Shown: positions 1 through 28,737, counted from the first letter of the stretch. The stretch is DNA of 64,000 nt from Folioceros fuciformis (GCA_049999805.1 JBNGIO010006370.1:373212-437211); one strand, 5' to 3'. The notes: generated by a model from the sequence alone, not told the origin. Program-made: numbers and translations.

Positions 1-364
1 TGATAGGAAGACTAAGACTAATTTGCTAAGCCTAATGACTACCAATAGCACCTTAAAATGAGGAAAAAACAGCCTACTTACAAAAAAAAACAATGTGTTT
101 CCATTTCGATAAAGTCTTCAGGTTTCCATGGCATCTACCGCTCATGGTGGTAGGGGTGACGTTGGGACGTCTGCATTCCTTGGCGGGATCCCTTTCGAGT
201 CATGGCCTTAGTTCAGCCACAGCACGAGACTTTAATTCAGACTTTAATCCCATGGAGAAGTTTAATGTGACATAACTAAATGAATTTAAAGAGATGGAGG
301 ATGCTGGGCGGGTCACACTGCCATGGACCGTTGTTAGTCAACCTTCCGACAGCGCTCCCGGACG

Positions 365-3055
365 ATGGGCACAGTGTGGCAATCAGCACCGTTGTGGACC
401 CAACAGATTGGTGCGTGTACTGGGCTGCTACCAGCAGCTCCCGCTCACATCACTTCGGGGAGTGAACTGCTGGCAGAAAAAGCCTCCAGGTGGAGCACTG
501 GAAGGAGCCAAGCTCTTCCAGTTTCGAAAAAATGTGTGAGCGGGAACGGATTTTCCAGCGATGGGTTGCGCCGACAGCAGGAGCACTTGTGGCATCAGTT
601 TTTTCTAGACCCTGCCATGTGGGTGGACAACAGACGACACAAGCAGAGCTCCCGTTCGCCTGATTTCCGACGTAAGAGGTCGGGCGAGGTGCTGTGGCTG
701 AACAACATGTTTAAGCCTGCTTGGGTTGATGAGCAGCTGGTTTCCTTGGACATGCAGGTGGTAGGTGGGGCAGCCGCTCTGTCGAAGTTGAGCTTGGATG
801 GGTCTGGCACGAATGTTGGATCGGAAATGGGCGTCGTAACGCCTGGAGTTGTGAGCATGTTGTGTCGGCAGGGGAAGCTGGATGAGGCTGTTGGAGCCCT
901 GGATTCCCTGGCGCAGTCGAGCTCTGCTGTTTCTGAGTCTCTGTTGTACAGTGTGCTGAAGCTGTGTATGGTGAAGAAGGACTTGGTTGTAGGGCGACGA
1001 GTTCATGATCTCGCTGCAGAACTTGGGTACGAGTCGAGTCCGTTTTTGGGGAACCATATCTTGCGCATGTATGCTTGTGGCGGGAGTCTGCAGGAGGCGA
1101 TGGAGGTGTTCACCAGGGTGGGGAAACCGAATGTGTTTATGTGGTTCTCCATAATATCTGCTCATGCGAAGCACGGGAGACCGAAGGAGGCCATACAACT
1201 GTACCATGCGATGCGTAGGTCAGGTGTGAAGGCGAATGCTCACGTCTTTGTGGCTACCCTTCAGGCTTGTGCATTTGCTGCCGATTTGGAGTCTGGCAGA
1301 GAAGTGCACTGTGATGTGTTGCACAGTGGCGTTCCTCCTGACTTGTTTGTTGGCAACTGCCTGGTGGACATGTATGCGAAGTGTGGCGAATTGAAAGATG
1401 CACGCCAGGTGTTTGATAGCATGGTCGTTAAGGATGTGGTGACATGGAATTCCCTGATATCTGGGTATGCGAAATGTGGTGAACTGAACAAGGCACGCCG
1501 TGTCTTCGACAGCATGAGGGCAAAGGATGTGGTGACATGGAATTCCCTGATAGGTGGATACGCCCAGCAGGGTCTCGGACATGAGGCACTTGTCCTGTAT
1601 GGACAAATGGAGCAGGAGGGGCTGGTTTTGGCTGACAATGTTACTTTTGCTTGCCTTCTGAAGGCCTGTGCAAGCACTGGTGCCTTACAGAAGGGCAGGC
1701 AGCTGCACTCGCAGATTGTTGAAAGAGGGCCGCTGAATGACATAGTGCTGGGCAACTGCCTGGTGGATCTGTATGCCAAATGTGGTGAACTGGATGCTGC
1801 ACGCCAGGTTTTTGTCAGCCTCTCGTGTAAGGATGTGGTGACATGGACATCGCTGATCTCTGGGTATGCAAAGGGAGGACTGGGCCAAGAGGCACTTGAT
1901 TTGTATGGACAAATGGAGGAAGCGGGCCTGATTTTAGCTGATGATGTTACTCTTGCTTGCCTTCTGAACGCCTGTGGAAGCACCGGTGCCTTACAAATGG
2001 GCAGGCACCTGCACTTGCAGATAGTCGAAAGGGGACTGCTGGACAACACAGTGCTCTGTACCTGCTTGTTGGACATGTATGCAAAATGTGGTGAACTGGA
2101 AGACGCACGGCAGGTTTTTGACATCATGGCCACAAAGGATGTGGTGACATGGACCGCCCTCATATCTGGGTATGGTACTTGTGATGATGGTCAGAAGGCA
2201 CTAGCTTGCTTTGAGGAGATGATAGCGTCTGGTATTCAGCCGAATGATGCTACGTTCACTTGCCTTTTAGTAGCATGCAGTCATGCGGGACTGGTCCATG
2301 AGGGCCGCAAGCACTTCGATTCCATGGCTCAACAACATGGCATCCAACGTACTTGTGAGCATTACAATTGCATGGTTGACCTTCTTGGGCGTGCAGGCCA
2401 ATTAGATGAGGCAGAGCAGATGCTGTTGTCATATGAGGGCCGAAGTAATGTTGTGGGCTTGAGGTCTTTGTTGAGTGCCTGTAAAAGTCATGGGGACATA
2501 GAGAGGGCAGTGTGGTGTTTTGAAAACATTGTCCAGCTGGAGCCCCGGGAGGCAACCGCTTATGTGCTCATGGCCAATGCCTACGCGGATGCAGGTAGGT
2601 GGACCGATGTGGACAGAATTGAAACACAGAGAAAGTTAGCAGGAGCTATCAAGAAACCGGCAGTTACGACCATTGAGGTGAATAAGCAGGTACATAGATT
2701 TCTGGTGGGAGGAAGGGGAGAGGATATTTCTTTTAAGGTCGAGAGGACGACTGCACGTCTGGAGCTGGAAGGAGGTCACGTTCCTCATACCAAGTTGGTG
2801 TTGAAGCCACTGGGTGAGAAGCAAAAGGAAGATGCACTTTGCGGGCATGCTGAGAAGCTAGCTCTGGCGTTTGGTCTGTTGAACACTCCGAGTGGGACAC
2901 CTCTGGTGGTAACAAAGAACCTACGGATGTGCAGCGACTGCCACAGCTCTACGGAGATAATGTCAAAGCTTGAGCAGCGAGACATTGTTGTAAGGGATGG
3001 TTACCGTGTGCATCGATTCACAGATGGCTGTTGCACTTGTAAGGGTCGGCCGTGA
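365..3055 (+). CDS. PLS-class PPR protein with N-terminal OSB-like PDF motif and C-terminal DYW:KP (GRP-ending) domain; candidate U-to-C RNA editing factor
   Basis: Intronless 896-aa ORF. PLS repeats (YAKCG..ARQVF..KDVVTW), E1/E2, KKPAVTTIEV with no PG box, GHAEKLALAFGL, KNLRMCSDCH, terminal CTCKGRP*. Confidence 0.95.
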   Translation: MGTVWQSAPLWTQQIGACTGLLPAAPAHITSGSELLAEKASRWSTGRSQALPVSKKCVSGNGFSSDGLRRQQEHLWHQFFLDPAMWVDNRRHKQSSRSPDFRRKRSGEVLWLNNMFKPAWVDEQLVSLDMQVVGGAAALSKLSLDGSGTNVGSEMGVVTPGVVSMLCRQGKLDEAVGALDSLAQSSSAVSESLLYSVLKLCMVKKDLVVGRRVHDLAAELGYESSPFLGNHILRMYACGGSLQEAMEVFTRVGKPNVFMWFSIISAHAKHGRPKEAIQLYHAMRRSGVKANAHVFVATLQACAFAADLESGREVHCDVLHSGVPPDLFVGNCLVDMYAKCGELKDARQVFDSMVVKDVVTWNSLISGYAKCGELNKARRVFDSMRAKDVVTWNSLIGGYAQQGLGHEALVLYGQMEQEGLVLADNVTFACLLKACASTGALQKGRQLHSQIVERGPLNDIVLGNCLVDLYAKCGELDAARQVFVSLSCKDVVTWTSLISGYAKGGLGQEALDLYGQMEEAGLILADDVTLACLLNACGSTGALQMGRHLHLQIVERGLLDNTVLCTCLLDMYAKCGELEDARQVFDIMATKDVVTWTALISGYGTCDDGQKALACFEEMIASGIQPNDATFTCLLVACSHAGLVHEGRKHFDSMAQQHGIQRTCEHYNCMVDLLGRAGQLDEAEQMLLSYEGRSNVVGLRSLLSACKSHGDIERAVWCFENIVQLEPREATAYVLMANAYADAGRWTDVDRIETQRKLAGAIKKPAVTTIEVNKQVHRFLVGGRGEDISFKVERTTARLELEGGHVPHTKLVLKPLGEKQKEDALCGHAEKLALAFGLLNTPSGTPLVVTKNLRMCSDCHSSTEIMSKLEQRDIVVRDGYRVHRFTDGCCTCKGRP

Positions 3056-3931
3056 GGATTATGAAGAACTGGGCTTGCTACTGTCAGGTGAAAGCAAACA
3101 GGCTGAAAAGAGTACGAGTCTTCGAGTTCTGACCAACCAGATGAGTGTGATGTGACCAGACAGGTAATAAGAGTTGTTTACGATCACGAGACTTGTCTTT
3201 CCCTGGAGACCTGATTTGCGCTCATCTCAGAGTGATATCTGTTTTGTCCTACAGGATGCTTCCTCGAAACAGGCTGTTTTGCTCCACGGGAAGCCGCAGG
3301 AGATCACTTTGTACGGATGGAGACCCTCGTATTCCCAACCAAATTCATGTTCCGGCTTTCCAACCTGCCACATTTTGCTTCTTCACCGTGTTTGCAGTTA
3401 AGCAGCTTCACATCTCCCCAGAGAGAGAAAACTGGTAAGTTTTGTTCTTCCTGTAGTTTCACATACATACCTGAGTCTCTTCCGTTTACACTAGCCTGAC
3501 AATGGTGCTGCCGTGTTTTACAGCAGAAAACTGGGCGCGGACGAAGATGTATGGACTGTGGGCGAGGGCGATATACAAATACAATAGTCGTCCTGTGCCT
3601 TGGATTCATACCTGCCCATCGTACTTGAACCTTTGCTCTGAACTCAGGTGTTGAGGGTCAGCTTCGTTTGAGCTTCCATCATAAGAAAAAACAGATTGTC
3701 TTCAATTGTATTAAAAATTCCTTTGTGTTGGAGTACGTGTACATCTTTTCGTTCTGTCCGGATCATTGATCGATGCGAGGAAGCCACCACCTGCATGACC
3801 AGCGCCTCCAGCATTTTGGGTTTTCATGCACCTCCAAACTTCTCGTACGCGCGTTTCGAATGGCCAGGCACAGGAAATGGGCAATCTCCCATAGACTGTT
3901 TGCGGACTTATCTTCTGAGAGCGGTTCCTGA

Positions 3932-6178
3932 ATGATGGCCACGGTATGGCAACCAGACCCGGTATGGACCCAACAATGTGGTGTGTGGACAGGGATTCTG
4001 CCAGGAGCTCCCGCTCATGTCGCCCCAGCACACAAAGCTTGCAGGTGCAGCAGTGTGAGGAGCCCAGCATTTCCTCTTCCGGAGAAATGTGTCGGTGTAG
4101 ACGGATTTTCCAGCGGTGGGCGTCTCCAGGCGAAGGATGAATTGTGGCAACAATTTTCTCTGGGCTCCAGCCCGCCTGGCTTCCGGCGTAAACAGTCCGG
4201 TGATGCTCTGCGGTGGAACAGCCTACTCAAGGCTGCTCGGGTTGATGACCAGCTCGTTTCTTTGGACATGCAGCTGGGTCATGGTGCTTCTCCTTCCACG
4301 TCGAGTTGTCTGGATAAGCCTGAACCTGGTACGCGTGCAGGATCGGCCAGAGGCGCTGTAACGCCTGGAACCGTGCGCAGGTTATGTCAGCAGGGGAAGC
4401 TAACTGAGGCCATTGTAGCTCTGGAATCTCTGGCGCAAACAGACTCTCCTATCTCTCAGTCTCTGTTCTACGGTGTGCTAAGGTTGTGTACAGCTAATAA
4501 GGATTTGGTTGTGGGGCGTCGAGTTCATGATCTCATTCACAAGCTTGGGTACGAATCGAATGCATACTTGGGGAACAATATCTTGCGCATGTACGCATGT
4601 GCAGGAAGGCTGAAGGAGGCGATGGATGTGTTCAACAGGGTGGACAAACCAGATTCCTTTTTGTGGTGTTCCATAATCTCTGCCCACGGTAAACATGGGA
4701 AGCCTGAAGAGGCCATACAACTGTACCATCGGATGCGTAGGTCAGGGGTGAAGGTGGACGGTCACGTCTTTGTAGCTGTACTCCAGGCTTGCGCATTGGC
4801 CGGTGACGTGGAATCTGGCAGAAAAGTGCACTGTGATGTGTTGCACAGTGGCATTCCCACCAACTTGTTTGTTGGCAATTGCCTGGTGGGCATGTATGCA
4901 AAATGTGGGGAGCTGGAAGCTGCACGCCAGGTGTTTGACAGCATGACCACCAAAGATGTGGTGACATGGACCGCCCTGATTGCTGGGTATGCACAGCAAG
5001 GGCTTGGGCATGAGGCCTTGGATGTGTATGGACAAATGCAGCATGGAGGCCTGCTCTTGGCTAGCCGTATTACTTTTGCTTGCCTTTTGAACGCCTGTGC
5101 AAGCACTGGTGCCTTGCAGAAGGGCATGCAGCTGCACTCGCAGATTGTTGAAAGGGGACTTCTGGATGATATATACTTGGGCAACTGCCTTGTGGACATG
5201 TATGCAAAGTGTGGTGAACTGGAGGAGGCTCGCCATGTGTTTGATAGGATGAACACAAAGGATGTGGTGACATGGACCACCCTGATAGCTGGGTATGGTA
5301 CTTGTGATCAAGGCCGCAAGGCTATAGCCTGTTTTGAGGAAATGTTACTAGCCGGTATTCTGCCTAACGAGGCTACGTTCACCTGCCTCTTAGCAGCATG
5401 CAGTCATGAGGGACTGGTCTACGAGGGCCGCAGTTTCTTTGACTCCATGGGTGAACAGCATGGCATCAAACCTACTATTCAGCATTACACCTGCATGATT
5501 GATCTTCTTGGGCGTGCAGGGCATCTAGATGAGGCAGAGAAGATGCTCTTGTCATGTGAGGGCCAAAGTGATGTTGTGGGCTTGATAACTTTGTTGAATG
5601 CGTGCAAAAGCCACGGGGATATAGATAGGGCCAGGTTGTGTTTTGAGCGCATTGTTAGGCTGGACCCCCAGGATGCGCCTGCATATGTTCTCATGGCTAA
5701 TGCCTACGCAGATGCAGGTAGATGGGCCGATTTGGACAGGATTGAAACGTTGAGAAGGGTGGTAGGAGCGAGCAAGAAACCTGCAGTGGCGACCATCGAG
5801 GTGAACAAGCAGGTACATAGATTTGTGGTAGGAGAAACCAGAGAGGATATGGCACTGAAGGTAGAGAGTATGAATGCACGTGTGAAGCAGGAAGGAGGCC
5901 ACGCTCCTCACACAAAGCTGGTGTTGAAACCAGTGTGTGAGACGGAAAAGGAAGATGCGCTTTGTGGGCATGCGGAGAAGCTAGCTCTGGCTTTTGGCCT
6001 CATGAACACTCCAAGTGGGACACCTTTGGTGATAACGAAGAATCTACGCATGTGCAGCGACTGCCACAGTTCCACGGAGATCATGTCCAGGCTTGAACGG
6101 AGACACATTGTTGTGAGAGATGGGTATCGTGTGCATCGATTTGAAGATGGCTGTTGCAGTTGCAAGGGTCGACTGTAG
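3932..6178 (+). CDS. PLS-class PPR protein with DYW:KP domain ending GRL; tandem paralogue of 365..3055
   Basis: 748-aa intronless ORF with the same N-terminus (MATVWQPDPVWTQQ), KKPAVATIEV, GHAEKLA, CSDCH and terminal CSCKGRL*. Confidence 0.95.
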   Translation: MMATVWQPDPVWTQQCGVWTGILPGAPAHVAPAHKACRCSSVRSPAFPLPEKCVGVDGFSSGGRLQAKDELWQQFSLGSSPPGFRRKQSGDALRWNSLLKAARVDDQLVSLDMQLGHGASPSTSSCLDKPEPGTRAGSARGAVTPGTVRRLCQQGKLTEAIVALESLAQTDSPISQSLFYGVLRLCTANKDLVVGRRVHDLIHKLGYESNAYLGNNILRMYACAGRLKEAMDVFNRVDKPDSFLWCSIISAHGKHGKPEEAIQLYHRMRRSGVKVDGHVFVAVLQACALAGDVESGRKVHCDVLHSGIPTNLFVGNCLVGMYAKCGELEAARQVFDSMTTKDVVTWTALIAGYAQQGLGHEALDVYGQMQHGGLLLASRITFACLLNACASTGALQKGMQLHSQIVERGLLDDIYLGNCLVDMYAKCGELEEARHVFDRMNTKDVVTWTTLIAGYGTCDQGRKAIACFEEMLLAGILPNEATFTCLLAACSHEGLVYEGRSFFDSMGEQHGIKPTIQHYTCMIDLLGRAGHLDEAEKMLLSCEGQSDVVGLITLLNACKSHGDIDRARLCFERIVRLDPQDAPAYVLMANAYADAGRWADLDRIETLRRVVGASKKPAVATIEVNKQVHRFVVGETREDMALKVESMNARVKQEGGHAPHTKLVLKPVCETEKEDALCGHAEKLALAFGLMNTPSGTPLVITKNLRMCSDCHSSTEIMSRLERRHIVVRDGYRVHRFEDGCCSCKGRL

Positions 6179-7445
6179 AGGTGAGAAACATGAAGAAGTA
6201 GCCTGGGCTCAAGTGTCCATGCCAGAGACTGACTGCACTCCTTCTTGGGGTGAATGTGCTAGTTCATCTACATGCCTATCCCAACTAAAACATGGATACG
6301 GATGGCTAACTCGTCTGGAGGGTTACAGAGTCGGGCGAGCAGAACTGCGAGATATGGGCAGCTGTAGGAGATCCCGGTTAGAGGAGCAGGCCTGGAATTC
6401 ATCTCAGATCCGTTGTTGACAGCAGAGGCGGGACCTGATTCAGGTCCAACGACAGAAGGAAGCGATGAGCATTTCTTCCGGCAGTGAGGGCTTCTCGCTG
6501 TGAACACGGCAGCCAGGCGTCCCACGTAGGACTGCTCGGTTCAGCCGTGGTGTTGGATGTGCCTCGCAGATTATCCGGAATGTGCCCCTTACCTCTCTGT
6601 ACAAGGGTATGTGCCAGTCCGACTACCTCTGGTGCTGTCCTATGGAGTATGCAGTCTCCGAAAGACAAACTGTTTGAAGTCACTCAAGGAACAAAGGGAC
6701 ACAAAGGAGGGACGTGCACAGGAGAAGCAACTCCGCGTGTCCAATCACGGGGGGGTCAGAGGGGTGAGAAGGAGGCGGTTGAAAGTGCAGCATTGCACCC
6801 TTTCTGTAAATTGCAACCTGAGCATATTTCCATTCTTGTTGGAGCTCATGCTGCTATGAGGCCTGCGAGCCGCAGGGCTTGTTCCAGCAGCTGGTTTGGT
6901 TGCTGGTAGATTTCAGCCTCAGGAGCTGGCAACCTTTTCACTTTGCAAACCATGTGTCTTCACAGGGATCATGAACTGATAGTTGGCAGCTTTGGAGCAG
7001 ACAAGGTATAACTGTAACTATTTCCTAGGCGCTTGTTTTTATGGGCGTTGTGCGAAGGAGAGTTCTAACTAGCATCATCTTGTTTGCTCTGCTGGGTGTA
7101 GGTTGGTGTATTCGTATTCGTGGATGCCCCTCAATGTGCAACAATCACAAACCAGACCCAGATAGCATCGAGGACGCGTGCAGGGACGAGAATTCCGTCA
7201 TTTAGGATCATAGATCTTGTTTTTATATTGGCATCAAAAACTTCGTTAACTGTACCCTGAAGTCTAATGAACAAACATGTTCCTACCTGTGAAACTTTCT
7301 GTCCGGGAAACCATGCTCTTTTCTTCTCTTGGTACCCAACGACGAACCATCGGCACGGATGCTTTTTGGTGGTATGGTCACATACTGGAACTGGGCATCG
7401 TGTCATAGCAGTCGCTCATTTGCCATCAGCCATCTCTAATGAGCG

Positions 7446-8577
7446 ATGGCCACGGCGTGGAAACCGGAGCCTTTGTGTCGGACCCAACAAATTCTCAAGG
7501 CCTGTGCAAGCAGTGGTGCCTCGCAGAAGGGCAGATGCAGCTGCACTCACAGATTGTGAAAAGAGGACTGCTGGACAATTTACTTGTGGGCAACTGCCTG
7601 GAGGTCGTGCATGCAAAATATGGTGAACAGGAAGACGCGCACCAGGTTTTTGACAGCTTGCCCAACAAAGATGTGGTGTCATGGACCGCCCTGATTGCTG
7701 GATATGCACAGCAAGGACTCGGCCAAGAGGCCCCTGTTGTCTATGGACAAATGGAGGAGGTAGGCATGATTTTGGCTGACAATGTTATTTTTGCTTGCCT
7801 TCTGAAAGCATGTGCAAGCAGTGGAGCCTTACAGAAGGGCAGGCAGCTGCACTTGCAAATTGCCGAAAGGAGACTGCCCTGTGGACATGTATGGTGAACT
7901 GGAAGAGGCCCGCCAGGTGTTTGACAGGAGGAACACAAAGGATGTGGTGACATGGACCAACCTGATAGCTGGGCATGGTGCTTGCGACGAAGGTGAGAAG
8001 GCACTAGCTTGTTTTGAGGAGATGTTAGTTGCCGGTATTCAGCCTAACGAGGCTACCTTTGCTTTCCTTTTTGTAGTCTGCAGTCATGACGGTGCTCATG
8101 TGCTCATGGCCAACGCCTGTGCAGATGCAGGTAGATGGACCGATGTAGACAGGATTGAAACACAGAGAAGGGCAGCCGGGGCTTACAAGAAACCTGCAGT
8201 GACCACAATCGAGGTGAACAAGCAGGTGCGTAGGTTTCTGGTGGGAGACGTAGGGAGGGAGGATCTTTCTCTCGAGGTAGAGCACGAAAGCACAGCTGAA
8301 GCGGGAAGGAGGCCACGTAGCTAACGCCAAGTTGGTGTTGAAGCCAGCGTGCGAGAAGGGGAAGGAAGAAGCTCTTTGCGGACATGCTGAGACGCTAGCT
8401 CTGGCATTTGGCCTGTTGATCCCTCTGGTGGTAACAAAGAATCTACGCATGTGCAGTGACTGCCACAGTTTCACAGAGATCATGTCAAGGCCTGAACACC
8501 GAGACGTCCTTGTGAGGGATGCCTACCATGTACATCGATTTGCAGCTGGATCCTGGAGCTGTGACGGTCGACCCTGA
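7446..8577 (+). pseudogene. PPR-DYW:KP pseudogene
   Basis: ATG at 7446 (MATAWKPEPLCRTQQ) joined directly to LKACASSGA. Several deletions and frameshifts across ORF pieces 7439..7897, 7812..8324 and 8332..8577. Retains GHAETLA, CSDCH and CDGRP*. Confidence 0.9.
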
Positions 8578-9132
8578 AGGTTTACCGTAAACCCTGAACT
8601 GACAAAAAACACGACTTGCTAATATGGAGAAACTTCTTGCTGGTCCCTTCACCTCAGATCCGCCTCATCTTACATGTGCAAGTTCATTCCCTTCGGCCAC
8701 TCCAAACAAAATAGGAATTTCGAATATGGAAACCAAAACAGATGGTAGGCACAACTTACCACATCTTCGTCGCGTCCAGACCACCACTAACAAACTGTGT
8801 TGGACACGGCACAGGACCTAATGCTAAATACAGCAAACTATGAAAGGTATGATATGAGAACAAACTGGAGACGAGAGGTCAAATAAAATACCCCACAAGA
8901 TCTATTAAGCAACTGCTAAACATAAAACCTCAAACCAAGGCAAAGAATCCTCATACTAGAATCGGAGGTGCCTTGAGATTGTGGTATTGTGACCTGGGAT
9001 TGTGGTATTTAAGGGGCAGAGGTCCCAACACTTTTCTCCATGTGTTCTTTTGATTGAACAGGTTTGAACGTTCTTCTCAACTATTCAGTAGCTTTGAGCG
9101 CTCTTCTCAACTCTTTAGGACCGTAATTCAAG

Positions 9133-10581
9133 ATGCCTCGAATTTATTTTGTACTGCGCAAGTCTCTATTGATAGCAGGGATATTGTTTCTTGCTATACT
9201 TTTGTGTAGTAGTTGTTTAGCATTTGAGACTAAGCATACAATACAAAAGTATGTGTATCCACGCCGTCCACTCAAGACAAGGATGCTAGTAGGAAAAGTA
9301 GCAGCATCACCAACCACTAAAGTATCAGTGGGCTCAGACTCTGATTCAGACTATAGTAGTATACAAGATGCAATTGATTGTGTGCCTGAGGATAACCCTA
9401 CTAGAGTTATCATCAATATTGCTGCCGGAACTTATAAGTGAGTCTTAATTTTCATGGGCCTTGTGATACATAGTTTTTTTGTTATGGGTCTTGTGATATA
9501 TATATTTTTTGTTATGATATTATTCTTTAATATATTTTTCTTTGCAGGGAAAAAATAGATATCCCATCCAACAAGCCCAGGATTACACTGAAAGGAGCTG
9601 GAAAAAGGAAAACTACGATCGTATGGCATGACAATGCAAATTCAACTGGTAGCACTTATACCAGTGCAACAGTCTCTGTCCACGCAGATTATTTTGAGGC
9701 ACATCATATTCGTTTTAAGGTTTGCTCATCTTTTTTCGCTTGTGACAATTTGTATCAATATGTTTTGAGTTAAAATTTTATAACTTTTGAAATTTCACAG
9801 AATTCGGCGAAGAAGGCAAAACCAGGGCAAGAAGGAGCACAAGCAGTTGCCCTTATGATCGAAGGCGACAAAGCTAAGTTTGATTCATGTATATTCGAAT
9901 CATCCCAAGACACGCTTTATGATAAATCAGGCAGACACTTATTCAAGAACAGTAAGATTATTGGCAACATCGACATGATTTGTGGCAATGGGCAATCCCT
10001 ATACAAGGTAAAGATTGTTGTAAAGATTGGAAAATATGCAAAAGAAAAATGATATTGTTTTTATCAGCATATTAATTGGTACTAAGATGTTTTTGCCTGA
10101 GTAGCATTGTGAGCTTCATTCTATTGCGAACAAGCATGGTGGATCCTTCACGGCACAACAAAGAGAGAATGTAAGTGAGGCAAGCGGATTTTCTTTTGTA
10201 CATTGCAACATCACAGGAAAAGGTTCCAACAACTTGGGAAGAGCTTGGGGATCAGCTTCAAGAGTGGTATTTTCATACACTCATATTGCGGACATAATCA
10301 ATCAAGAGCAACCATGGACCGATTGGAATGATTCGAGCAGGGATGAGTAAGTTCAATTTGATTTTTATTTAAACCATTTTATATTAATTATGTTAAAAAA
10401 AATTAAGTGGGTCTATACTAATTATGTGGGCTGTTGTAGAACTATATTTTATGGCATGTATCAATGCTCTGGTCCAGGTGCTAATAGCACCAATTTTCCA
10501 AGTTATGTGCATGAATTAACAAAGGAAGAAGCACGACCATTTATGTCTCTCGATTTCATCGAAGGTGACAGCTGGGATTAA
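9133..10581 (+). CDS. Pectin methylesterase without PRO/PMEI domain, secreted; exons approx 9133-9437, 9548-9719, 9801-10007, 10105-10346, 10440-10581
   Basis: Signal peptide; motifs SIQDAID, GTYKEKI, QAVAL, QDTLYD, IDMICG, LGRAW, YQCSGPGA; GT-AG introns that keep the frame. Confidence 0.92.
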
Positions 10582-10794
10582 CTTTGCCCACAACGACTCT
10601 TGTTATGAGAATTTTGCATTAGGGGTTAGTCATAATTTAGCACTAGGGACTATCTAGCTTTAGTTCATAGTGCAGCCCTTAAGTTTTGAAAAGCTACCTC
10701 ACTTTCTTTTTTAATGTTTTTTTGAACGAGTCCAATTACGGACGACTAAAATAAAATGCTTAATCTGAAGCCATATTTTGAGGTCAGAAGGAAA

Positions 10795-11090
10795 AGGATC
10801 TCTGGGCCATGTGGAAGGCATTTTCATTCAATTCTCCGGGCCATCTCCGAGGAGTCTTCCATTCCGATCCGTTTTCCCTGCATATCTCCGGGCCATGCAG
10901 ATCTCTGGGCCATCCAGATCTCTGGGCTATGGGCACGGCGTTTTTTGACGTTTCGACGAGCCATGGGAAGACACGTTTCCAAGGTTCGACGAGCCATGTG
11001 CAAGGCGTTTTTCAAGCTTTTGAAGACATGGGCCAGGACGAGCCAAGGTCTTTTCAAGTTTCCGAAGACATGTGCCAAGACAATTTCGGA
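10795..11090. repeat. Degenerate short direct repeats (GATCTCTGGGCCAT and TTCGACGAGCCATG motifs)
   Basis: GATCTCTGGGC(C/T)AT occurs three times and TTCGACGAGCCATG twice within ~300 bp. Confidence 0.55.
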
Positions 11091-11232
11091 TTGTAAAGAG
11101 GCAAGTGCTCCTGAGCGTCTTTGTCTCTCATCAGTCATCCGTTTGGGCAGAGATGAAACTCAGCAAACACATTCGATGCCAAAGAAAAAGAGGGATATTC
11201 TCCGCCGTACACACATGAAGATCCGCTTGTTC

Positions 11233-11382
11233 TCATGGTCGACCCTTACAACTGCAGCAAGCATCTTCAAATCGACGGACACGGTTCCCATCTCCTACAA
11301 CTATGTGTCTCTGTTCAAGCCTTGACGTGATCTCCGTGGAGCTGTGTCAGTCACTGCACATGCGCAGATTCTTGGTTACCAA
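11233..11382 (-). pseudogene. Orphan C-terminal fragment of a DYW:KP domain
   Basis: Minus strand reads VTKNLRMCSD*HSSTEITSRLEQRHIVVGDGNRVRRFEDACCSCKGRP*. The second Zn-ligand Cys codon is a TGA (11347-11349). Confidence 0.9.
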
Positions 11383-11581
11383 TGCTTGAGACACCGATCT
11401 CGGTGATGAGGAGGAAGGAGGTGCATCCGCGTCGGTCATCCATGTTTTTTCTGTACAGTTGGAACCTCTTGGTTTGCATACAAAGATAGTTCATCCACAA
11501 ACCAGTCAATGGCAGGCACATTGATCCCGAAGGAATGTTACATAGTATATATGCCTTGAACCCGGACCAGTTCCTCATTCT

Positions 11582-14500
11582 CTAAGGTCGACCCTTACAA
11601 CTGCAACAACCACTTGCAAATCGATGGACGCGGTACCCATCCCTTACAACAATGTCCCTCTGTTCAACCCTTGACATGATCTCGGTGGAACTGTGGCAAT
11701 CACCGCACATGCGTAGGTTCTTCGTTACCATCAGGGGTGTACCACTCGGAGTGTTCAAGAGACCGAAAGCCAAAGCTAGTTTCTCGGCATGCCCACAAAG
11801 AGCATCTTCTTTTTGCTTCTCACCCAGTGACTTCAACACCAACTTCGTGAGAGGTACGTGGCCTCCTTCCTGCTTCAGACGTGAATTCGTGCTTGCTACC
11901 TTGAGAGTTATGTCCTCTCGTCTTTCTCCCACAAGAAATCTGTGTACCTGCTCGTTCACCTCAATGGTGGCCACTGCAGGTTTCTTATTGCCTCCTGCTA
12001 CCATTCTCTGCGCTTCAATCCTCTCTGCATCGGTCCACCTGCCTGCATCTGCATAAGCATTGGCCATAAGCACATATGCGGACGCCCACCGAGGGTCCAG
12101 ACTAACAATGCTCTCAAAACACCACTTCGCTCTGCCAAGATCGCCATGGCTTTTACAAGCATTTAAAAACACCGTCAGGCCCACAACATTACTTTGGCCC
12201 TCACACGATAACAGCATCTTCTCTGCCTCATCTAAATGCCCAGCACGCCCTAAAAGATCAATCATACAAATGTAATGCTCGAAAGTAGGTTCAATGCCAT
12301 GCTGTTCAACCATGGATTCAAAGTGCTTGCGACCCTCCTGGACAAGTCCCTCATGACTGCATGCTACTAGAAGGCAAGTGAATGTAACACCGTCAGGCTG
12401 AGTGCCGGCAACTAGCATCTCCTCAAAACAAGCTAGTGCTCTGTGACCATCATCACAAGTACCATACCCAGATATCAGGGCATTCCATGTCACCACATCC
12501 TTGGTGGCCAAGCTGTCAAAAACGAGTCGTGCTGCATCCAGTTCGCCACATTTTGCATACATGTCCACCAGGCAGTTGCCCAACACGACGTTACCCAGCA
12601 GTCCTCTTTCCACAATCTGTGTGTGCAGATGCCTGCCCTTCTGTAGGGCACCCGTGCTTGCGCAGGCTTTTAAAACACAAGTCAAAGTAACATCGTCAGC
12701 CAAAATGAGGCCCTCTTGCTCCATTTGTTCATATAGAAGAAGCGCCTCTTGGCCAAGTCCTTGCTGTGCATACCCAGACATCAGGGCATTCCAGGTCACC
12801 ACACTCTTTGTGGCTATGCTGTCAAATACCAGGCGTGCATCTTGCAGCTCACCACACTTTGCATACATGTCCACCAGACTGTTGCCCAGCACTCCAGTGT
12901 CCAGTAGTCGTCTTTCAACAATCTGTGAATGCAGCTGCCTGCCCTTTGGCAAGGCACCAGTGCTTGCACAGACCTTTAGGAGGGAAGCAAAAGTGACACG
13001 ATCAGCCAAAATCAGGCCCTCTTGCTCCATTTGTGCGAACAGATTAAGCGCCTCTTGGCCAGGTCCATGCTGTGCATAGCCAGATATCATAGCATTCCAC
13101 GTCAACACATCCTTTGTGGCCATACTATTAAAAACCTGGCGAGCATCTTCCACTTCACCACATTTTGCGTACATGTCCACCAGGCAGTTGCCCAACAATA
13201 CACCATCAAGTAGTCCTCTTTTGACAATCTGTGAGTGCAGCTGCCTGCCCATCTGTAGTGCACCGGTGCTTCCACAGGCCTTCAGAAGGCAAACGAAAGT
13301 AACATGGTTAGCTACGGTCACACCCTCTTCCTCCATTTGTCCGTACAGAAAAAGCGCCTCTTGGCCGAGTCCTTGCTGTGCATACCCAGCAATCAGCGCG
13401 GTCCATGTGACAACATTCTTTGTGCCCAAGCTGTCAAACACTTGGTGCGCTTTTTGAAGTTCACCACACTTTGCATACATGTCCACCAGGCAGGTGCCCA
13501 CCAGTACGTCATCTAGAAGCCCTCTTTGAACAATCTGTACGTGCAGCTGCCTGCCCTTCTGTAAGGCACCAGTACTTGCACAAGCTTTCAGAAGGCAAGC
13601 GAAAGTAACGTGGTTAGGTGAAATCAGGCCCTCCTCCTCCATTTGTCCGTACAGAGCCAGTGCCTCATTACCGAGCCCTTGCTGGGCATACCCAGCTATT
13701 AAGGCATTCCATATCACTACATTCTTTGTTGCCATGCTGTCAAAAACCTGGCGTGCATCTTTCAAGTCACCACATTTCGCATACATGTCTATGAGGCAGG
13801 TGCCAACAAATAGAGTGATAGGAATGCCACTGTCCAAAACATCAGAATGCACTTTTCTGCCAGACTCCAAATCGGCGGCCAATGCACAAGCTTGAAGGGC
13901 AGCTACAAAGACGTGAGCATCCGCAATCACTCCTGACCTACGCATCTTATGGTACAGGTGTACGGCCTCCAAAGGCTTCCCATTCTTCGCATATGCAGAA
14001 ATTATGGAAAACCACATGAAGGAATTTGGTTTCCCCACCCTGGTGAACACATCCATGGCCTCCTGCAGCCTACCTCCACCTGCATACATGCGCAAGATAT
14101 GGTTCCCCAAGTAGGCATTCGACTCGTACCCAAGTTTCACCGTGAGATTATGGACTCGTCGCCCCACTACCAAGTTCTTTCTCATTGTACACAGTTTTAT
14201 CACTGTGTAAAACAGGGACTGGGAAATCGGAACATCTGTCTGTGCCAGAGATTCCAGGGCTCTCACGGCCTCTGACAGCTTCCCCTGCTGGCATAGCATG
14301 CTCACGGTCTCAGCTGTTATGACACCCACTTTTGATTCTGCACGCATGCCAGGTTCAGGCTTATCCGGAGGGCTCCAGTCGGAAGGATAGGCACCATGAC
14401 CCATCTGCATATCCAAGGGATCGAGCTCCTCATCAACCCAATCTCGCTTGAACGTGTTGTTTAACCACAGGACCTCGCTGGACCCCCCATGCCGGATGTC

Positions 14501-14797
14501 AAGCGATCGGGAGGCCTGCTTATCTCGTCTGCTGTCCCACCCCATGACAGGTTCCGGCAAAGATTGTTGCGACCAATGCTCCTGCTCCTGGTGACGACCA
14601 TCGCTGGAAAACCAGTCCCTACCCACACATTTGGGCGGAAATGGACGAGCTGGGCTACCAACGCTGCTGCAATTGGAGGCTTCGTTTGCAAGGATCTGAC
14701 TCCTTAAAGTGAGGTGGGCGGGAGCGCCCCGAAGAATCCCTGTGCACAAACCACTTTGTTGGGTCCACAACGGTTCCGGTTGCCATGCTGTGGACAT
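11582..14797 (-). CDS. PLS-class PPR protein with DYW:KP (GRP) domain; long paralogue
   Basis: Intronless ORF with ATG at 14797 (MSTAWQPEPLWTQQ), four internal PLS triplets, KKPAVATIEV, GHAEKLA, CGDCH and CSCKGRP*. Confidence 0.95.
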   Translation of the reverse strand: MSTAWQPEPLWTQQSGLCTGILRGAPAHLTLRSQILANEASNCSSVGSPARPFPPKCVGRDWFSSDGRHQEQEHWSQQSLPEPVMGWDSRRDKQASRSLDIRHGGSSEVLWLNNTFKRDWVDEELDPLDMQMGHGAYPSDWSPPDKPEPGMRAESKVGVITAETVSMLCQQGKLSEAVRALESLAQTDVPISQSLFYTVIKLCTMRKNLVVGRRVHNLTVKLGYESNAYLGNHILRMYAGGGRLQEAMDVFTRVGKPNSFMWFSIISAYAKNGKPLEAVHLYHKMRRSGVIADAHVFVAALQACALAADLESGRKVHSDVLDSGIPITLFVGTCLIDMYAKCGDLKDARQVFDSMATKNVVIWNALIAGYAQQGLGNEALALYGQMEEEGLISPNHVTFACLLKACASTGALQKGRQLHVQIVQRGLLDDVLVGTCLVDMYAKCGELQKAHQVFDSLGTKNVVTWTALIAGYAQQGLGQEALFLYGQMEEEGVTVANHVTFVCLLKACGSTGALQMGRQLHSQIVKRGLLDGVLLGNCLVDMYAKCGEVEDARQVFNSMATKDVLTWNAMISGYAQHGPGQEALNLFAQMEQEGLILADRVTFASLLKVCASTGALPKGRQLHSQIVERRLLDTGVLGNSLVDMYAKCGELQDARLVFDSIATKSVVTWNALMSGYAQQGLGQEALLLYEQMEQEGLILADDVTLTCVLKACASTGALQKGRHLHTQIVERGLLGNVVLGNCLVDMYAKCGELDAARLVFDSLATKDVVTWNALISGYGTCDDGHRALACFEEMLVAGTQPDGVTFTCLLVACSHEGLVQEGRKHFESMVEQHGIEPTFEHYICMIDLLGRAGHLDEAEKMLLSCEGQSNVVGLTVFLNACKSHGDLGRAKWCFESIVSLDPRWASAYVLMANAYADAGRWTDAERIEAQRMVAGGNKKPAVATIEVNEQVHRFLVGERREDITLKVASTNSRLKQEGGHVPLTKLVLKSLGEKQKEDALCGHAEKLALAFGLLNTPSGTPLMVTKNLRMCGDCHSSTEIMSRVEQRDIVVRDGYRVHRFASGCCSCKGRP

Positions 14798-15182
14798 CGT
14801 CAAGCGAAAGATGAGTCTAAGGACAGACTACATGTTCTATAGAAGCACATGCCCGGGTATTGAGCTTAAAGCGAAGGGACTATCCATGTGTATGATCACA
14901 CAAATCTGAAGGGTAACTGAGACAAAAATACACTGGAATCTTCCAGCCAAGGAAGAGATTCCAAAGTTTTGGCCACCGACCGGTAAAGCGCGCTTAGATT
15001 CAAGCCATCGAAGAACTCCTTCCTTTCAGAGAATGATTCATTGGATTTGATTACCACAGTTAGGGTGTCAGATGGGGTAGCAGGGAGACGAAGACGTCAG
15101 ACGTTTCTCGGTGTGGCTTGGGATGCGAGCACGTTTTACTTGTCTTCTCTGCCGTAGACACTCGAGCACTGGCTAGTTACTG

Positions 15183-15800
15183 CCACGGTCGACCCTTACA
15201 ACTACAACAAATGGTTGTACGCATCACCCATCCCTTACAACAATGTCACTCTGCTCTATCCTTGACATGATCGCCGTGGAACTGTGGCAGTCACTACACA
15301 TGCGTAGATTCTTCGTTACCACCAGAGGTATGCCACTGGGAGTGTGCAAGAGATCAAACGCCACAGCTAGCTTCTCAGAATGCCCACAAAGTGCATCTTT
15401 TTCCTTCTCCTGCAATGGCCTCAACACCAAGTTTGTGTGAGGTTTATGTCCTCCTTCCTCCTTCATACGCGCATTCGTGCTCTCCACTTTGAGCGCAATA
15501 TGCTCTCGTTTCTCCCACTGGGAATGTGCAAGAGACCAAACGCCACAGCTAGCTTCTCAGCATGCCCAAAAGGGCATCTTCTTTTTCCTTCTCCTGCAAT
15601 GGCTTCAACACCAAGTTTGTGTGAGGTATATGACCTCCTTCCTCCTTCATACGTGCATTCGTGCTCTCTACCTTGAGCGCAATATGCTCTCTTGGTTCTC
15701 CTACCAGGAATGTATGCACCTGCTCCTTTACCTCAACGGTTGCCACTCCAGGTTTCTTGTTAGCTCCTGCTGCCCTTCTCTGTGTTTCAATATAGCCGAT
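15183..15800 (-). pseudogene. DYW:KP domain remnant with an internal ~182-bp tandem duplication
   Basis: KKPGVATVEV...ALKVESTNARMKEEGGH; the segment is duplicated (15333-15514 and 15515-15700). Frameshift near ALCG, stop after VVRDG, and an out-of-frame CCSCKGRP. Confidence 0.88.
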
Positions 15801-15933
15801 TCTGCACCCGCGTCCAGGAAACTTGGAGGGAAAGCTTAATGGTGGTGATGATGTGAAGGCAATTCGTCTCCGAGGTGAGGTCTTTCGAATGGAGAAAATC
15901 ATATCGAGCGGATTGAGGATGCTAATCGAGACT

Positions 15934-18183
15934 CTAAATGGGCATATAATGAGTACATGATATATTCCCAGTTTGCCTCAGCAGTAAGGTTACCTTATCT
16001 AGAAGGTCATGTACTTCCTCATGTTCAGGGTGCTTGCGGTCTCCTACGTAGAATGTGTGCGCTTCCTGCTCGACCTCAATCCAGCTCCACCCAGGTTCCT
16101 TCCAGGCACCTTCCCTCCTTCTGCACTTGAATAGTGCCTTTGCTTGGTCAAAGAGGCCGGCATCGGCATAGATGTGTGACATCAAAACATATGCTGCAGC
16201 ATCCTTGGGTTGCAGACGTAAGGCACAATCAAAAACACGTTCTGCCAGGGCTATGTTGCCATGCTTCCGACAGGCCGCCAGGACGCAAAGCCATGTTGCC
16301 AGGTCAGGCTGAATTGGCATCACTGACAAGAGCTCCTCCACCTTTGAAAAGTTTCCTGCGCGGCCGAAAAGGTCTACCATGCTCACATAATGCTCGATTT
16401 CCGGGGTCACGCCGAAGTCTTTGCTCATGGATTCGAAGTACTCCACACCTTTCTCGACCAGGCCGGCATGACTGCAAGCTGTGAGAAGGGACACAAATGT
16501 CACCGCATCTGGGTGAATTCCTGCTAGTCGCATGGCCTGATAACATTGCAGGGCTTCTTGCCCCAGCCCATACTGAGAATATCCAGTGACCATGGCTGAC
16601 CATGTCACAACATCTCTTGTGCTCATACTATCAAACACCTTGCGGGCATCGTCGAGACTCCCACACTTTGCATACATGGCCACCAGGCAGTTGTTGACAA
16701 CAAGGTCAGCTCCAAGCCCTCTTGTCTGGATCTGACAGTGAAGCTGCTTACCCTGCTGCAATGCACCAATGCTGGCACATGCCTTCAGAAGGCAAACAAA
16801 TGCAACATGATCATTCGGATCGATGCCCTCTTTTTGCATGACTGCATAAAGAGACAGCACTTCCTGACCAAGACCATGCTGGGCATATCCACAAAGCATC
16901 GAGGTCCATGTTACCCCATCTTTGGTCAGCATAGTGTCAAACACCCTGCGGGCCTCGTCCAAGCTGCCGCATTTCGCATACATGTCCACCAGACAGTTAC
17001 TGACAAGCACGTTAGATTCCAGTCCTCTTGCCTGAATCTGAGAATGGAGCTGCTTCCCCTGGTGTAGAGCACCAGTGCTGGCACATGCTTTCAGCAGGCA
17101 CAAGAATGTAACGTAGTCAGCTGGAAACATCCTTTCCTGCTCCATAACTGCGTAAAGCGCAAGGGCTTCCTTACCGTGCCCAAGCTGAGCATATCCTGCT
17201 AGCATAGCAGTATATGCCACCACATTTCTTGAGGGCAAATTATCAAACACCCTGCGGGCATCCGCTATGCTCCCACATTTCGCATACATGTCCACCAGGC
17301 AGCTACCAACAACTACATCACGGTCGAGTCCCCTACCCTGAACTTGGGCATGAAGCTGTTTGCCAAGGTCTAACGCTCTGATGCTGGCACATGCGTTCAG
17401 GAGGCAAACAAAAGTAACCTGGTCAGCTGGTATGATGGCCTCCTGTTGCATATTTGCATAGAGAGCAAGAGCTTCTTCCCCAAGCCCATGCTGGGCATAT
17501 CCTGCAAGCATTGCAGTCCACGTCACCACATTCTTGGTGGTCAAGTCGTCAAAAACCCTGCGTGCATTATCTAGGCTACCGCATTTCGCGTACATGTCAA
17601 CCAGGCAACTGCCAACAAACACATTTGGCTCAAGTTCAGTCCGCAGAAAATCAGCATGGACCTCCCTGCCTGAAGCCAAATCTGCTGCGTTTGCACATGC
17701 TTTAAGGACAGCCACAAATATATGAGCGTCTGGTGTAACTCTTGACTGACGCATCTGCCAGTACAGTTTTATTGCCTGCATGGGTTCTCCGTGTTCGGCA
17801 TGGGCTGAAATCAAGGACGACCACATGTATGCGTCTGGAGAAATCAGTTTGGCGAATACCTCCAATGCTTCAGTCAGCCTACCGTGAGAGGCATACATGC
17901 AGATTGTGTGGTTCGCTAAAAACTTGTTAAGCTCATAGCCACTCGAAACGATAAGACCATGGACCTTTCTTCCAAAATCCAACTCCTTCTTCGTGGTACA
18001 CTCTTTCAGGACCCCTCGGAAGAGAGATGCTGGAATATACGATCCCTGACGAGAGAGCAGATTCAAGGCTTCGACGGCTTCACCAGTCAATCCCTCCTCA
18101 GACTGTTCGCTCCCTTCTCCATGCCCTACCAACCTGCACCACGAAGGCCACTCCCGCCGCCCCCTTGCCTGTAATTTTTTCAT
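15934..18183 (-). CDS. PLS-class PPR protein, E+ type (PG box, no catalytic DYW); 5' end uncertain
   Basis: PLS repeats, E1/E2, KEPGWSWIEV...GDRKHP, then stop before any HxE. First in-frame ATG at 18183; an upstream exon is possible. Confidence 0.9.
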   Translation of the reverse strand: MKKLQARGRREWPSWCRLVGHGEGSEQSEEGLTGEAVEALNLLSRQGSYIPASLFRGVLKECTTKKELDFGRKVHGLIVSSGYELNKFLANHTICMYASHGRLTEALEVFAKLISPDAYMWSSLISAHAEHGEPMQAIKLYWQMRQSRVTPDAHIFVAVLKACANAADLASGREVHADFLRTELEPNVFVGSCLVDMYAKCGSLDNARRVFDDLTTKNVVTWTAMLAGYAQHGLGEEALALYANMQQEAIIPADQVTFVCLLNACASIRALDLGKQLHAQVQGRGLDRDVVVGSCLVDMYAKCGSIADARRVFDNLPSRNVVAYTAMLAGYAQLGHGKEALALYAVMEQERMFPADYVTFLCLLKACASTGALHQGKQLHSQIQARGLESNVLVSNCLVDMYAKCGSLDEARRVFDTMLTKDGVTWTSMLCGYAQHGLGQEVLSLYAVMQKEGIDPNDHVAFVCLLKACASIGALQQGKQLHCQIQTRGLGADLVVNNCLVAMYAKCGSLDDARKVFDSMSTRDVVTWSAMVTGYSQYGLGQEALQCYQAMRLAGIHPDAVTFVSLLTACSHAGLVEKGVEYFESMSKDFGVTPEIEHYVSMVDLFGRAGNFSKVEELLSVMPIQPDLATWLCVLAACRKHGNIALAERVFDCALRLQPKDAAAYVLMSHIYADAGLFDQAKALFKCRRREGAWKEPGWSWIEVEQEAHTFYVGDRKHPEHEEVHDLLDKVTLLLRQTGNISCTHYMPI

Positions 18184-18596
18184 TTTCGGCAAGGGGCAAC
18201 TGATCTGCAATCTCTATCCCTCTGGCATCGCCTGGATGTCCCCTGTCTAATCTCTGGTAAGCCTCCTGGTATGGCATTGCATCTCCTCCTCCTGCGGGAC
18301 CATGGGAGGAGGAGATCCAAAGCCATGGCCTAACCATGGAAGGCAATGTTTCGCGTGCTAACCTGCACTACGTGTCCGCCGCGTTTATTCCAATTGCAGG
18401 GGCTCAGGTGCTGACCAAGGTGGTTCAACCTAACTTCCAAGTTTTGAAAGCTGAACAATATGTATGACATCCGTGCACGCACTCTACGAACTATGGTAGA
18501 TATGGGTTGTGCTGAACTCCGATGCTCGGTGAATGCCAGGTTCTGTAAGGGAGGAAGATCGGCTGGTGTTTTGCTCTGTGGATGCCAGCTGTGGGA

Positions 18597-25200: not shown

Positions 25201-25382
25201 GGGAAGTGAAGAAGCTTCCCGGGTGGAGTCGCATTCAAGTGGACTCTCACACACACACTTTCCTGGCCAAGGACATTTCCCATCCCAATATTCGCGAAAT
25301 ACATGCAGAGATTGCAAGGTTGTTACAAGAAATAGAATCAGATGCTGAATCATCAAACTTCACTACTGATGGTACAGGCTAA
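22289..25382 (+). CDS. Long PLS-class PPR protein, E+ type (PG box, no catalytic DYW); upstream exon/start not resolved
   Basis: 1030-aa ORF of PLS repeats ending KKLPGWSRIQVDSHTHTF..DISHP. The ORF is preceded by an acceptor-like TTTGCATATGCAG ending at 22288. Confidence 0.92.
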
Positions 25383-27680: not shown

Positions 27681-28737
27681 TTAGTCGGAAGATGCCTGTG
27701 CAACCTGAAGCACGGGAGTCAAGACACGACAAACGTATCACATGCGCAAAGGGTTCAACCACACGCACAGCATCCTAAACTGACCTGGAGGAGAGCGGGG
27801 TCAGAGCGGGCCAAGTCGACAGCGGTGCGGCCATCCTGGAGGGCAGCAGTTGAACGGGCCCCCTTGGCGAGTAACAGGCGCGCCACTTCCGCCTGGCCCC
27901 GAACTAAGGCCAGATGCAGCGGAGTCCAGCCTCGGCTATTGCAGGAGCTGGGTTCCGCGCCCTTAGCCAGCAGCAGCTCCACCATGAGGCACTCCCCCAT
28001 AGAAGCGGCATCGTGCAGGGCGGTGTTGCCTAGAGCGTTCTTGATCTCCAGATTTGCCCCGAATTCCAGCAGCACTTGCACCAGCTCCGCCCTGCCTGAG
28101 GCCACCGCCAGGTGCATGGCAGTGCGCCCCTGCCCGTCCTTACCGTTCAGCGCCTCCCCGTCCACATCCCTATCGAGGACCTGCGCATTCCCAAGTCTGT
28201 TCAATCTGTCTGTCTGCTGCATCTGCTTAAACTTTAAGGAACGGAAAGGCAGGGAGGGGGAGAGGTGCGTCACAGGATTCTTCTCACCTCTCTCACCAGC
28301 TCTAAGGCGTGCTTCGTGTCCTGCGACACCAGGGTGCGCAAGATGACGCCGCCCACAAACACGACACGCACGTGCCCATCTGCAAACACTTGCTTCTTGC
28401 CGGGGGAAAACCAGTCCGGGGAGACCGACCGGTTGGGCGGCAGACCCCCTGGCACCACCACGCTGTTCACCATGAACTTGTCCTCGCTGATGGGATATCC
28501 GGACTCCGGCAGCGTCTTCAGGGCGTACATCACCACGTCCAGTGTCAGGGAGCCCAGGGGAGGGATGATGCCTGTTGAAGGCTTCACGCTGTAAGCCCTT
28601 GGCGCCGTGCTTTCGACCTTGAAAGCCACTGGCATGGTGTGCATCACATTACGAATGCGGAATACTCCGGTTGACTTCCTACCCAACTCAAACCATATCG
28701 TCAACTCCTTGGGATCCACAACCAACAGTCGGTCCAT
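27681..28737 (-). CDS. VPY: VAPYRIN-family protein (MSP/VAP domain + about 4 ankyrin repeats), about 289 aa; exons approx 28737-28288, 28180-27785, 27704-27681
   Basis: Start MDRLLVVDPKE, the VAPYRIN-type NVMHTMPVAF...KPSTGIIPPL, and ankyrin motifs GRTAMHLA, GNTALHDA, GWTPLHLA, GRTAVDLA. GT-AG introns in phase 0. Confidence 0.8.

Follow-up and report, generated by a model that had tools for sequence, protein, structure and literature searches.

In Folioceros fuciformis, six loci of one gene family lie within 15.5 kb of DNA and probably represent an old tandem set of nuclear genes for RNA-editing factors of the PLS class of pentatricopeptide repeat (PPR) proteins, with a C-terminal DYW:KP domain of the GRP subtype. 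The loci occupy positions 365-15893 of a 64,000-nucleotide (nt) window, i.e. the whole stretch of DNA that was analysed (GCA_049999805.1, JBNGIO010006370.1:373212-437211), and all positions are counted from its first letter. Three of the loci are intact genes (g1, g2 and g3) and three are disabled, 5'-truncated remnants (remA, remB and remC); the first three loci are on the plus strand and the last three on the minus strand. Judged by similarity, g1, g2 and g3 most likely encode site-specific organellar editors that convert U to C, a function assigned because the proteins are homologous to published designer proteins. A first-pass annotation of this DNA had proposed six loci, three intact and three broken, with the same succession of strands, and open reading frame (ORF) and tblastn analyses located all of them at the places and on the strands that it gave. 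Its coordinates were generally correct, except for the start of g3 and that of remA, which similarity places at about 7491 and not at 7446. The family members, with the two domains of g1 discussed below, are as follows.

365-3055, plus strand: g1, intact ORF of 896 amino acids (aa), ending in CKGRP
572-754, plus strand: OSB-type PDF motif of g1 (residues 70-130), found by profile search and BLASTP
2654-3052, plus strand: DYW:KP (GRP) deaminase-like domain of g1, 133 aa in length from KPA onwards
3932-6178, plus strand: g2, intact ORF of 748 aa, ending in CKGRL
7491-8574, plus strand: remA, 5'-truncated pseudogene whose tblastn matches fall in frames 3/2/3/1, with several deletions and a single in-frame stop, ending in DGRP
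11236-11382, minus strand: remB, 49-codon C-terminal DYW:KP fragment, ending in KGRP
11582-14797, minus strand: g3, intact, 1071 aa from its ATG, ending in CKGRP
About 15185-15893, minus strand: remC, pseudogene from E2 to the end of DYW:KP with an in-frame stop, ending in CSCKGRP

The g3 ORF obtained with translation table 11 begins two codons further upstream, at a TTG at 14803. A frame of at least 748 codons has, by a rough estimate, a chance of about 1e-16 of being open at approximately 50% GC ((61/64)^748). Pfam searches identified PPR repeats, the E motif (PF20431) and the DYW_deaminase domain (PF14432) in g1, g2 and g3, with E values for the last of 1.5e-31 (g1) to 1.5e-32. A motif-by-motif segmentation of the three proteins gave arrays of regular motif lengths (35-36, 35 and 31 aa) followed by P2, L2, S2, E1 and E2. 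All three proteins therefore have the organization by which PLS-class editing factors are recognized, i.e. an array of P, L and S motifs leading to P2-L2-S2 and then to E1 and E2. In g1, the order is a PDF motif, S-P1-L1-S1-SS-P1-L1-S1-P1-L1-S1-P2-L2-S2, E1, E2 and the 133-aa DYW:KP domain. In g2, an eroded N-terminal motif precedes a shorter PLS array, which has one P1-L1-S1 triplet fewer than that of g1 and no SS motif, and E1, E2 and a DYW:KP domain ending in GRL follow. The longest array is that of g3, where a degenerate PDF motif is followed by five P1-L1-S1 triplets, P2-L2-S2, E1, E2 and a DYW:KP domain ending in GRP. The SS motif of g1 is a 31-aa hybrid (residues 358-388; 1436-1528) located between S1 and P1, which begins like P1 (VVTWN) and ends like S1, and it looks like a product of recombination between P1 and S1.

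Assignment of the C-terminal domains was based on the features described by Ichinose et al. (2022, PMC9478123) and Ichinose et al. (2025, PMC11845758). According to these reports, KP domains differ from PG domains at the PG box, at the middle residue (x) of HxE and at the final triplet, and most of them have no xHP and are 132-133 aa long (PMC9478123, PMC11845758). Lys88 is described as essential for U-to-C editing (PMC11845758). Hornworts are reported to have a DRH and a GRP subgroup, and in the latter the Asp of DYW has been lost and a conserved Lys has become Glu (PMC9478123). In g1, g2 and g3, the PG box is replaced by KKPAVTTIEV or KKPAVATIEV; position 3 of the domain is Ala in 94% of 34 KP rows of the alignment and Gly in 88% of 48 PG rows. 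The xHP site is a four-residue gap relative to the PG-type structures 9kfx and 7o4e and to the 48 PG rows, and the domain length of 133 aa from KPA is within the published range. HAE is present in all three proteins (residues 65-67 in g1), and the zinc ligands are complete (H65, E67, C93, C96, H97, H120, C127 and C129). Lys88 is also present, within TKNLR; since this Lys is conserved in PG domains as well, it is necessary for the KP assignment without being diagnostic of it. At position 101, which we equate with K103 of the published PG numbering (our own reading), all three have Glu; Lys occupies this position in 88% of the KP rows and in every PG row (100%). Gly131 stands in place of the Asp of DYW, and the terminal triplet is GRP in g1 and g3 and GRL, one residue off, in g2.

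The remaining positions of the domain agree with this assignment. Both g1 and g3 retain every position that is conserved in at least 90% of 34 relatives bearing HAE, and g2 departs from these positions only by L76M and V86I. Among the positions that discriminate KP from PG domains, A3, A66 and V119 are KP-like in all three proteins and V86 in g1 and g3 only; at position 5, g1 has Thr where g2 and g3 have Ala. The first-pass annotation had called these domains DYW:KP of the GRP subtype on the grounds of the KKPA(V)xxIEV box, the missing HP segment, HAE and the GRP/GRL ends. Each of these features was found again in g1, g2 and g3, and the subtype agrees with every published sequence criterion used and, when all alignment columns are included, with the phylogeny described below. 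Its statements from the literature, namely that DYW:KP domains are confined to lineages with U-to-C editing and have been shown to catalyse it and that the GRP ending is typical of hornworts, are likewise correct: U-to-C conversion is reported for the designers KP2 and KP3, which were built on GRP proteins, and the GRP subgroup is one of hornworts.

Among known systems, the GRP-subgroup proteins of hornworts (Gerke et al., 2020, as cited in PMC9478123) and the designers KP2 and KP3 are the most similar as described, sharing with g1, g2 and g3 the KPA box, the missing xHP, the length of 133 aa, HAE, Lys88, the change from Lys to Glu after CxxCH, Gly for the Asp of DYW, the GRP end and the PLS-E1-E2 organization. 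KP2 and KP3 were compared by description and not by sequence, and unlike them g1, g2 and g3 are natural genes with PPR arrays of their own. The window proteins end in KGRP or KGRL, whereas four GRP-ending relatives in the database end in GGRP; the GRL end of g2 and the N-terminal PDF motif of g1 are further differences from GRP relatives. DYW:KP proteins of the DRH subgroup and of ferns and lycophytes share the KP box, HAE, Lys88, the absence of xHP and membership of the KP clade, but they have Lys101, keep Asp131, have ends such as DRH or Dxx and fall outside the GRP clade (support 98, all columns). The DYW:PG domains that convert C to U (OTP86, 7o4e/7o4f; DYW1, 7w86; synthetic, 9kfx) share the fold, HxE and CxxCH, the second site (H...CxC) and the conserved Lys. 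They differ in the PG box, xHP, HSE, Phe in place of Val119 and the DYW end, and they form a separate clade with a support of 95.

For the phylogeny, 87 DYW domains were used: the three from the window and 84 of 90 hits obtained with the last 157 aa of g1 as query. P0017, P0022, P0046, P0056, P0074 and P0090 were left out owing to truncated or extended C-termini. The tree came from a quick search, with support from the SH-like approximate likelihood-ratio test (SH-aLRT) only. A KP clade of 38 rows (95) was separated from 49 PG rows (95), the window trio formed a clade (99), and the trio joined the four GRP-ending proteins in a further clade (98, all columns). The comparison of DYW domains with KP and PG references, which the first-pass annotation had proposed as a check, thus places the domains with KP and not with PG. 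Within the trio, the pairing of g1 with g3 is weak (80). The end branches are alike in length (0.093-0.11), which indicates that no copy has been accelerated.

Relatives with solved structures are 9kfx (E 1.5e-41), 7w86 (6.2e-30) and 7o4e (6.4e-29). An AlphaFold model of the g1 domain, built with a 37-row alignment, had a mean predicted local distance difference test score (pLDDT) of 87.0 and a predicted template modelling score of 0.75; confidence was lower around the xHP deletion (pLDDT 61-79, residues 21-60). All six fold matches of the model at E <= 0.001 were chains of 9kfx, 7o4e, 7o4f and 7w86, each of them a DYW entry (E 3.4e-14 to 3.0e-08, template modelling scores of about 0.5-0.64).

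The arrays of the three proteins have diverged in length as well as in the residues that would select an RNA. There are two P1-L1-S1 triplets in g2, three in g1 (in addition to the hybrid SS) and five in g3, and the pairs formed by the fifth and last residues of the P and S motifs differ among the proteins. At S2, these pairs are NN, TD and IN in the three proteins, and at P2 they are TN, TN and ND. In the PPR code, ND specifies U, NN and NS specify C in preference to U, TD specifies G and TN specifies A. By this code, the predicted RNA footprints differ among the three proteins; with array lengths and codes so diverged, g1, g2 and g3 should serve different sites.

In the proposed mechanism, the intact proteins would be imported into an organelle, where the PLS array would bind one RNA sequence at approximately one nucleotide per motif, each read by the fifth and last residues. 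S2 would be placed about 4 nt upstream of the target, and the zinc-dependent deaminase-like domain at the C-terminus would turn the target U into C. A crosslinking/Schiff-base model has been proposed, and in the published model Lys88 would attack C4 of the uridine. Among the designers, the GRP-based KP2 and KP3 (the latter from a hornwort genome) are reported to reach about 26% and 22% U-to-C conversion, respectively, in Escherichia coli, with no C-to-U editing there (PMC9478123). HAA and AxxA mutants were described as dead, and designer activity as requiring HAE and CxxC (PMC9478123) as well as Lys88 (PMC11845758).

The three remnants, mapped in the window by tblastn with the intact proteins as queries, belong to the same KP/GRP-like type, with a KKPAV or KKPGV box and a DGRP or KGRP end. 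What remA still has is one PLS triplet, P2, some of L2, the last portion of E2 and a DYW:KP domain that is short of 5 aa; it has lost everything 5' of the last triplet as well as the remainder of L2, S2, E1 and the greater part of E2, and its nucleotide identity to g1, g2 and g3 is 76-78%. The remB fragment shares the strand of g3 and lies about 200 nt downstream of that gene, with 75-81% aa identity to the intact proteins, and a stop replaces the second Cys of its CxxCH. In remC, the terminal stop codon after CSCKGRP now reads TGG, and there is an internal tandem duplication of about 190 nt (15333-15527 versus 15515-15713, minus strand; 90% identity), one stretch of which reads HAE and the other HSE. 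This is the only young duplication in the region. An intact PPR gene is found 5' of each remnant on the same strand (g2 for remA, g3 for remB and g4, described below, for remC). The remnants are probably the dead 3' parts of genes left by unequal recombination or by decay. Birth-and-death turnover, as suggested in the first-pass annotation, fits the occurrence of intact genes next to disabled remnants.

The intact copies are under purifying selection. In global codon alignments, they are 71-72% identical in protein and 78-79% identical in DNA, with a synonymous divergence (dS) of 0.59-0.70 and a ratio of nonsynonymous to synonymous divergence (omega) of 0.24-0.29 over the whole length. Omega rises from 0.10-0.18 in the DYW domain through 0.21-0.26 in the PPR array to 0.45-0.51 in the N-terminal 165 residues. 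The copies cease to resemble each other in DNA about 20 nt upstream of the ATG and no more than 20 nt beyond the stop codon. The remnants, at 76-81% nucleotide identity to the intact genes, are approximately as distant from them as these are from each other, and no near-identical pair of copies was found within the window. Neighbouring 306-nt P-L-S triplets within genes are 77-79% identical. Given this dS, the absence of shared flanks and the absence of near-identical pairs, the cluster is an old tandem family whose members have since diverged; it is not currently amplifying, and gene death is present. When contig depth was summed in a DNA run of the same organism, the PPR and DYW parts came out far above the unique parts, a figure that is not a copy number.

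Regarding the mode of duplication, most PPR expansion in hornworts is attributed to dispersed, retroposition-like duplication in a 2026 survey (PMC13386178). No run of at least seven A residues was found within 500 nt downstream of any copy in the window, which is weak evidence against retroposition because the copies are so old. An inverted segmental duplication was also considered for the layout of three plus-strand and three minus-strand loci and is not supported, as all pairs are about equidistant (76-81% in nucleotides) and the pairing of g1 with g3 is weak (80).

Several observations weigh against the reading of g1, g2 and g3 as organellar U-to-C editors of the GRP type. The published activity comes from consensus designer proteins and not from natural ones. 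The reference rows were labelled KP or GRP by their own motifs and not by curation, and the tree was therefore repeated once the columns for the box, the indel, HxE-x, Lys/Glu and the terminus had been removed. In this control tree, the split between KP and PG stayed at 95 and the window trio at 98; the GRP clade was no longer supported, though the nearest row was still a GRP protein. No close ortholog was found, the best match to the C-terminal 157 aa of g1 (E2 and DYW) being 69% identical; for residues 1-940 of g3, the best was 52% identical among the 120 matches listed from 8000 scored candidates, a search that was saturated with PPR proteins and made in a collection evidently without this genome. 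In addition, four runs, all of them contigs, were compared with positions 1-18500, and the one guessed to be RNA (X3) also covers the intergenic stretches 6069-7003, 7100-7566 and 10862-11254; it thus behaves like DNA and says nothing on expression. Finally, the designer KP6 is reported to convert C to U in human cells and, according to Hayes et al., in vitro, where it gave no U-to-C editing. This last result bears on the direction of editing, as do the reports that single substitutions at Lys88 and a few other residues switch it (PMC11845758) and the fact that the catalytic core, HxE and CxxCH, is common to PG domains. It could accordingly be argued that g1, g2 and g3 are genuine editing factors which act from C to U or in both directions. 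This is unlikely, since Lys88 and the KP-specific residues are all present in the window domains, and the GRP-based KP2 and KP3, with U-to-C and no C-to-U activity in E. coli, have been judged more optimized for U-to-C editing (PMC9478123, PMC11845758).

Another reading is that one or more of the intact frames, though open, is silent or catalytically inactive and is turning into a pseudogene. Three neighbours are already dead, the run data give no expression support for g1, g2 and g3 (X3 reading like DNA), the N-terminal region evolves fast and has lost the PDF motif in g2, and g2 ends in GRL instead of GRP. Such decay is quite unlikely, however, when frames of 748-1071 codons are still open after a dS of 0.6-0.7, the omega of the DYW domain is as low as 0.10-0.18, the invariant residues are all kept and no branch is accelerated. 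The first-pass annotation had further inferred that the family is amplifying locally, and a present-day process of recent tandem duplication might be read from the six members in 15.5 kb, the young 190-nt duplication (90%) in remC and the monophyly of the window trio among available sequences. It is very unlikely in view of the dS values, a nucleotide identity of 72-81% between intact copies and 71-72% between their proteins, the differing PPR codes, the lack of flanking similarity or of any near-identical pair, and remnants as distant as the intact genes themselves.

No candidates for enzymatic U-to-C editing are known other than DYW:KP proteins, whose development into programmable base editors is under way. 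Natural pairs of factor and target remain largely untested. The cluster adds natural GRP-type domains with three distinct PPR arrays that could be matched to native sites. Published hornwort genomes are reported to contain approximately 1,600-2,300 PPR genes each, the GRP subgroup included. Because so many are already on record, the cluster alone changes little. The three genes are new members of the known DYW:KP (GRP) family, and the only unexpected element is the fusion of a PDF motif to a PPR protein.

Only g1 keeps this motif intact; in g3 it has degenerated, and g2 has lost it. Against a profile of 324 motif instances from non-PPR (OSB-like) hits, g1 scored 72.9 bits (E 7e-25) and residues 73-130 of g3 (about 14408-14581, minus strand) scored 25.4 bits (E 4.5e-10), PDF itself being changed to LDI in g3; the same profile matched neither g2, nor the three neighbouring PPR genes g4, g5 and g6, nor any of 300 shuffled sequences. 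By BLASTP, g1 was 45% and 42% identical to the two motifs of a Populus 'protein OSB1, mitochondrial-like' (E 9e-15 and 6e-13). A second profile, made from seven PPR N-termini, retrieved 1162 representative proteins at E <= 0.001. Among the best 150 of these, 141 were non-PPR proteins (median length 366 aa, median of three motif copies) and nine were PPR proteins with one to three N-terminal copies. Ten clusters were looked up: one was OSB1-like (Populus) and one had a member named 'Single-stranded DNA-binding protein' (Ceratopteris), three were unnamed and the rest carried 'hypothetical' or unrelated names. Named PPR proteins with the motif occur in Sphagnum, Adiantum and Diphasiastrum (a moss, ferns and a lycophyte), and the fusion is found in PG-type as well as KP-type proteins.

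In AtOSB1, the 50-aa PDF motif has been reported to be sufficient for binding of single-stranded DNA. OSB proteins have an OB-fold-like domain at the N-terminus and one or more PDF motifs at the C-terminus (repeated in the OSB-like hits, with a median of three copies), whereas the motif of g1 is single, N-terminal and fused to a PPR array, with no OB-fold part; g1 therefore shares the OSB motif and is not an OSB protein. Pfam gave no match to the first 170 aa of g1, g2 or g3 at E values up to 10. A model of the PDF motif (pLDDT 78.7, four helices) had no convincing fold match among 48,161 chains, the best Z score being 3.6. A full-text literature search found no description of a PDF-PPR fusion, although survey supplements (Gerke et al., 2020; Gutmann et al., 2020; PMC13386178) may list some, or the genes of this cluster. 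Tentatively, the PDF motif of some PLS editing factors of seedless plants might act as an accessory module that binds nucleic acid or tethers the protein to the organelle nucleoid. If so, the module would be dispensable and in the course of being shed as paralogues specialise; a functional PDF-PPR fusion would link the editing machinery to a motif of organellar DNA maintenance proteins.

Beyond the cluster, there are three more PPR genes, which bring the intact PLS genes in the window to six.

15934-18210, minus strand: g4, intact PLS-class PPR gene, E+ type
22290-25382, plus strand: g5, intact PLS-class PPR gene, E+ type, with PF20430
53375-56467, minus strand: g6, intact PLS-class PPR gene, E+ type

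In each of these, a PG box is followed by a truncated start of a DYW:PG domain; the E+ type is reported to be enriched in hornworts. The similarity of remC begins 41 nt downstream of g4's stop codon, and the two were considered as a single broken gene. This was ruled out, since an E2, a PG box and a truncated (E+) end of its own are present in g4.

The window is compact and intron-poor in layout. Two long frames on the minus strand (56970-59864 and 60405-62003) contain CFAP65-type Ig-like domains, known from a cilia/flagella protein. The two probably belong to one gene as exons, and such a gene fits a plant with flagellate sperm. The GRP-type domains, the three E+ genes, the CFAP65-like frames and the compact layout are all in keeping with a hornwort genome. 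Other frames encode MSP and ankyrin domains (27755-28767, minus strand), an AAA_33 kinase-like protein (30024-30932, minus strand), a protein disulfide isomerase with two thioredoxin domains (34630-36528, plus strand), an inositol-pentakisphosphate 2-kinase (39180-39932, plus strand) and an IQ/DUF4005 protein (43652-44605, plus strand). Runs of N are located at 31125-31224 and 42160-42559. In the spacer between g2 and remA, one X3 contig (record 10) joins position 7003 to 7100, and 7004-7099 looks like a 96-bp presence/absence difference between runs with the same organism label.

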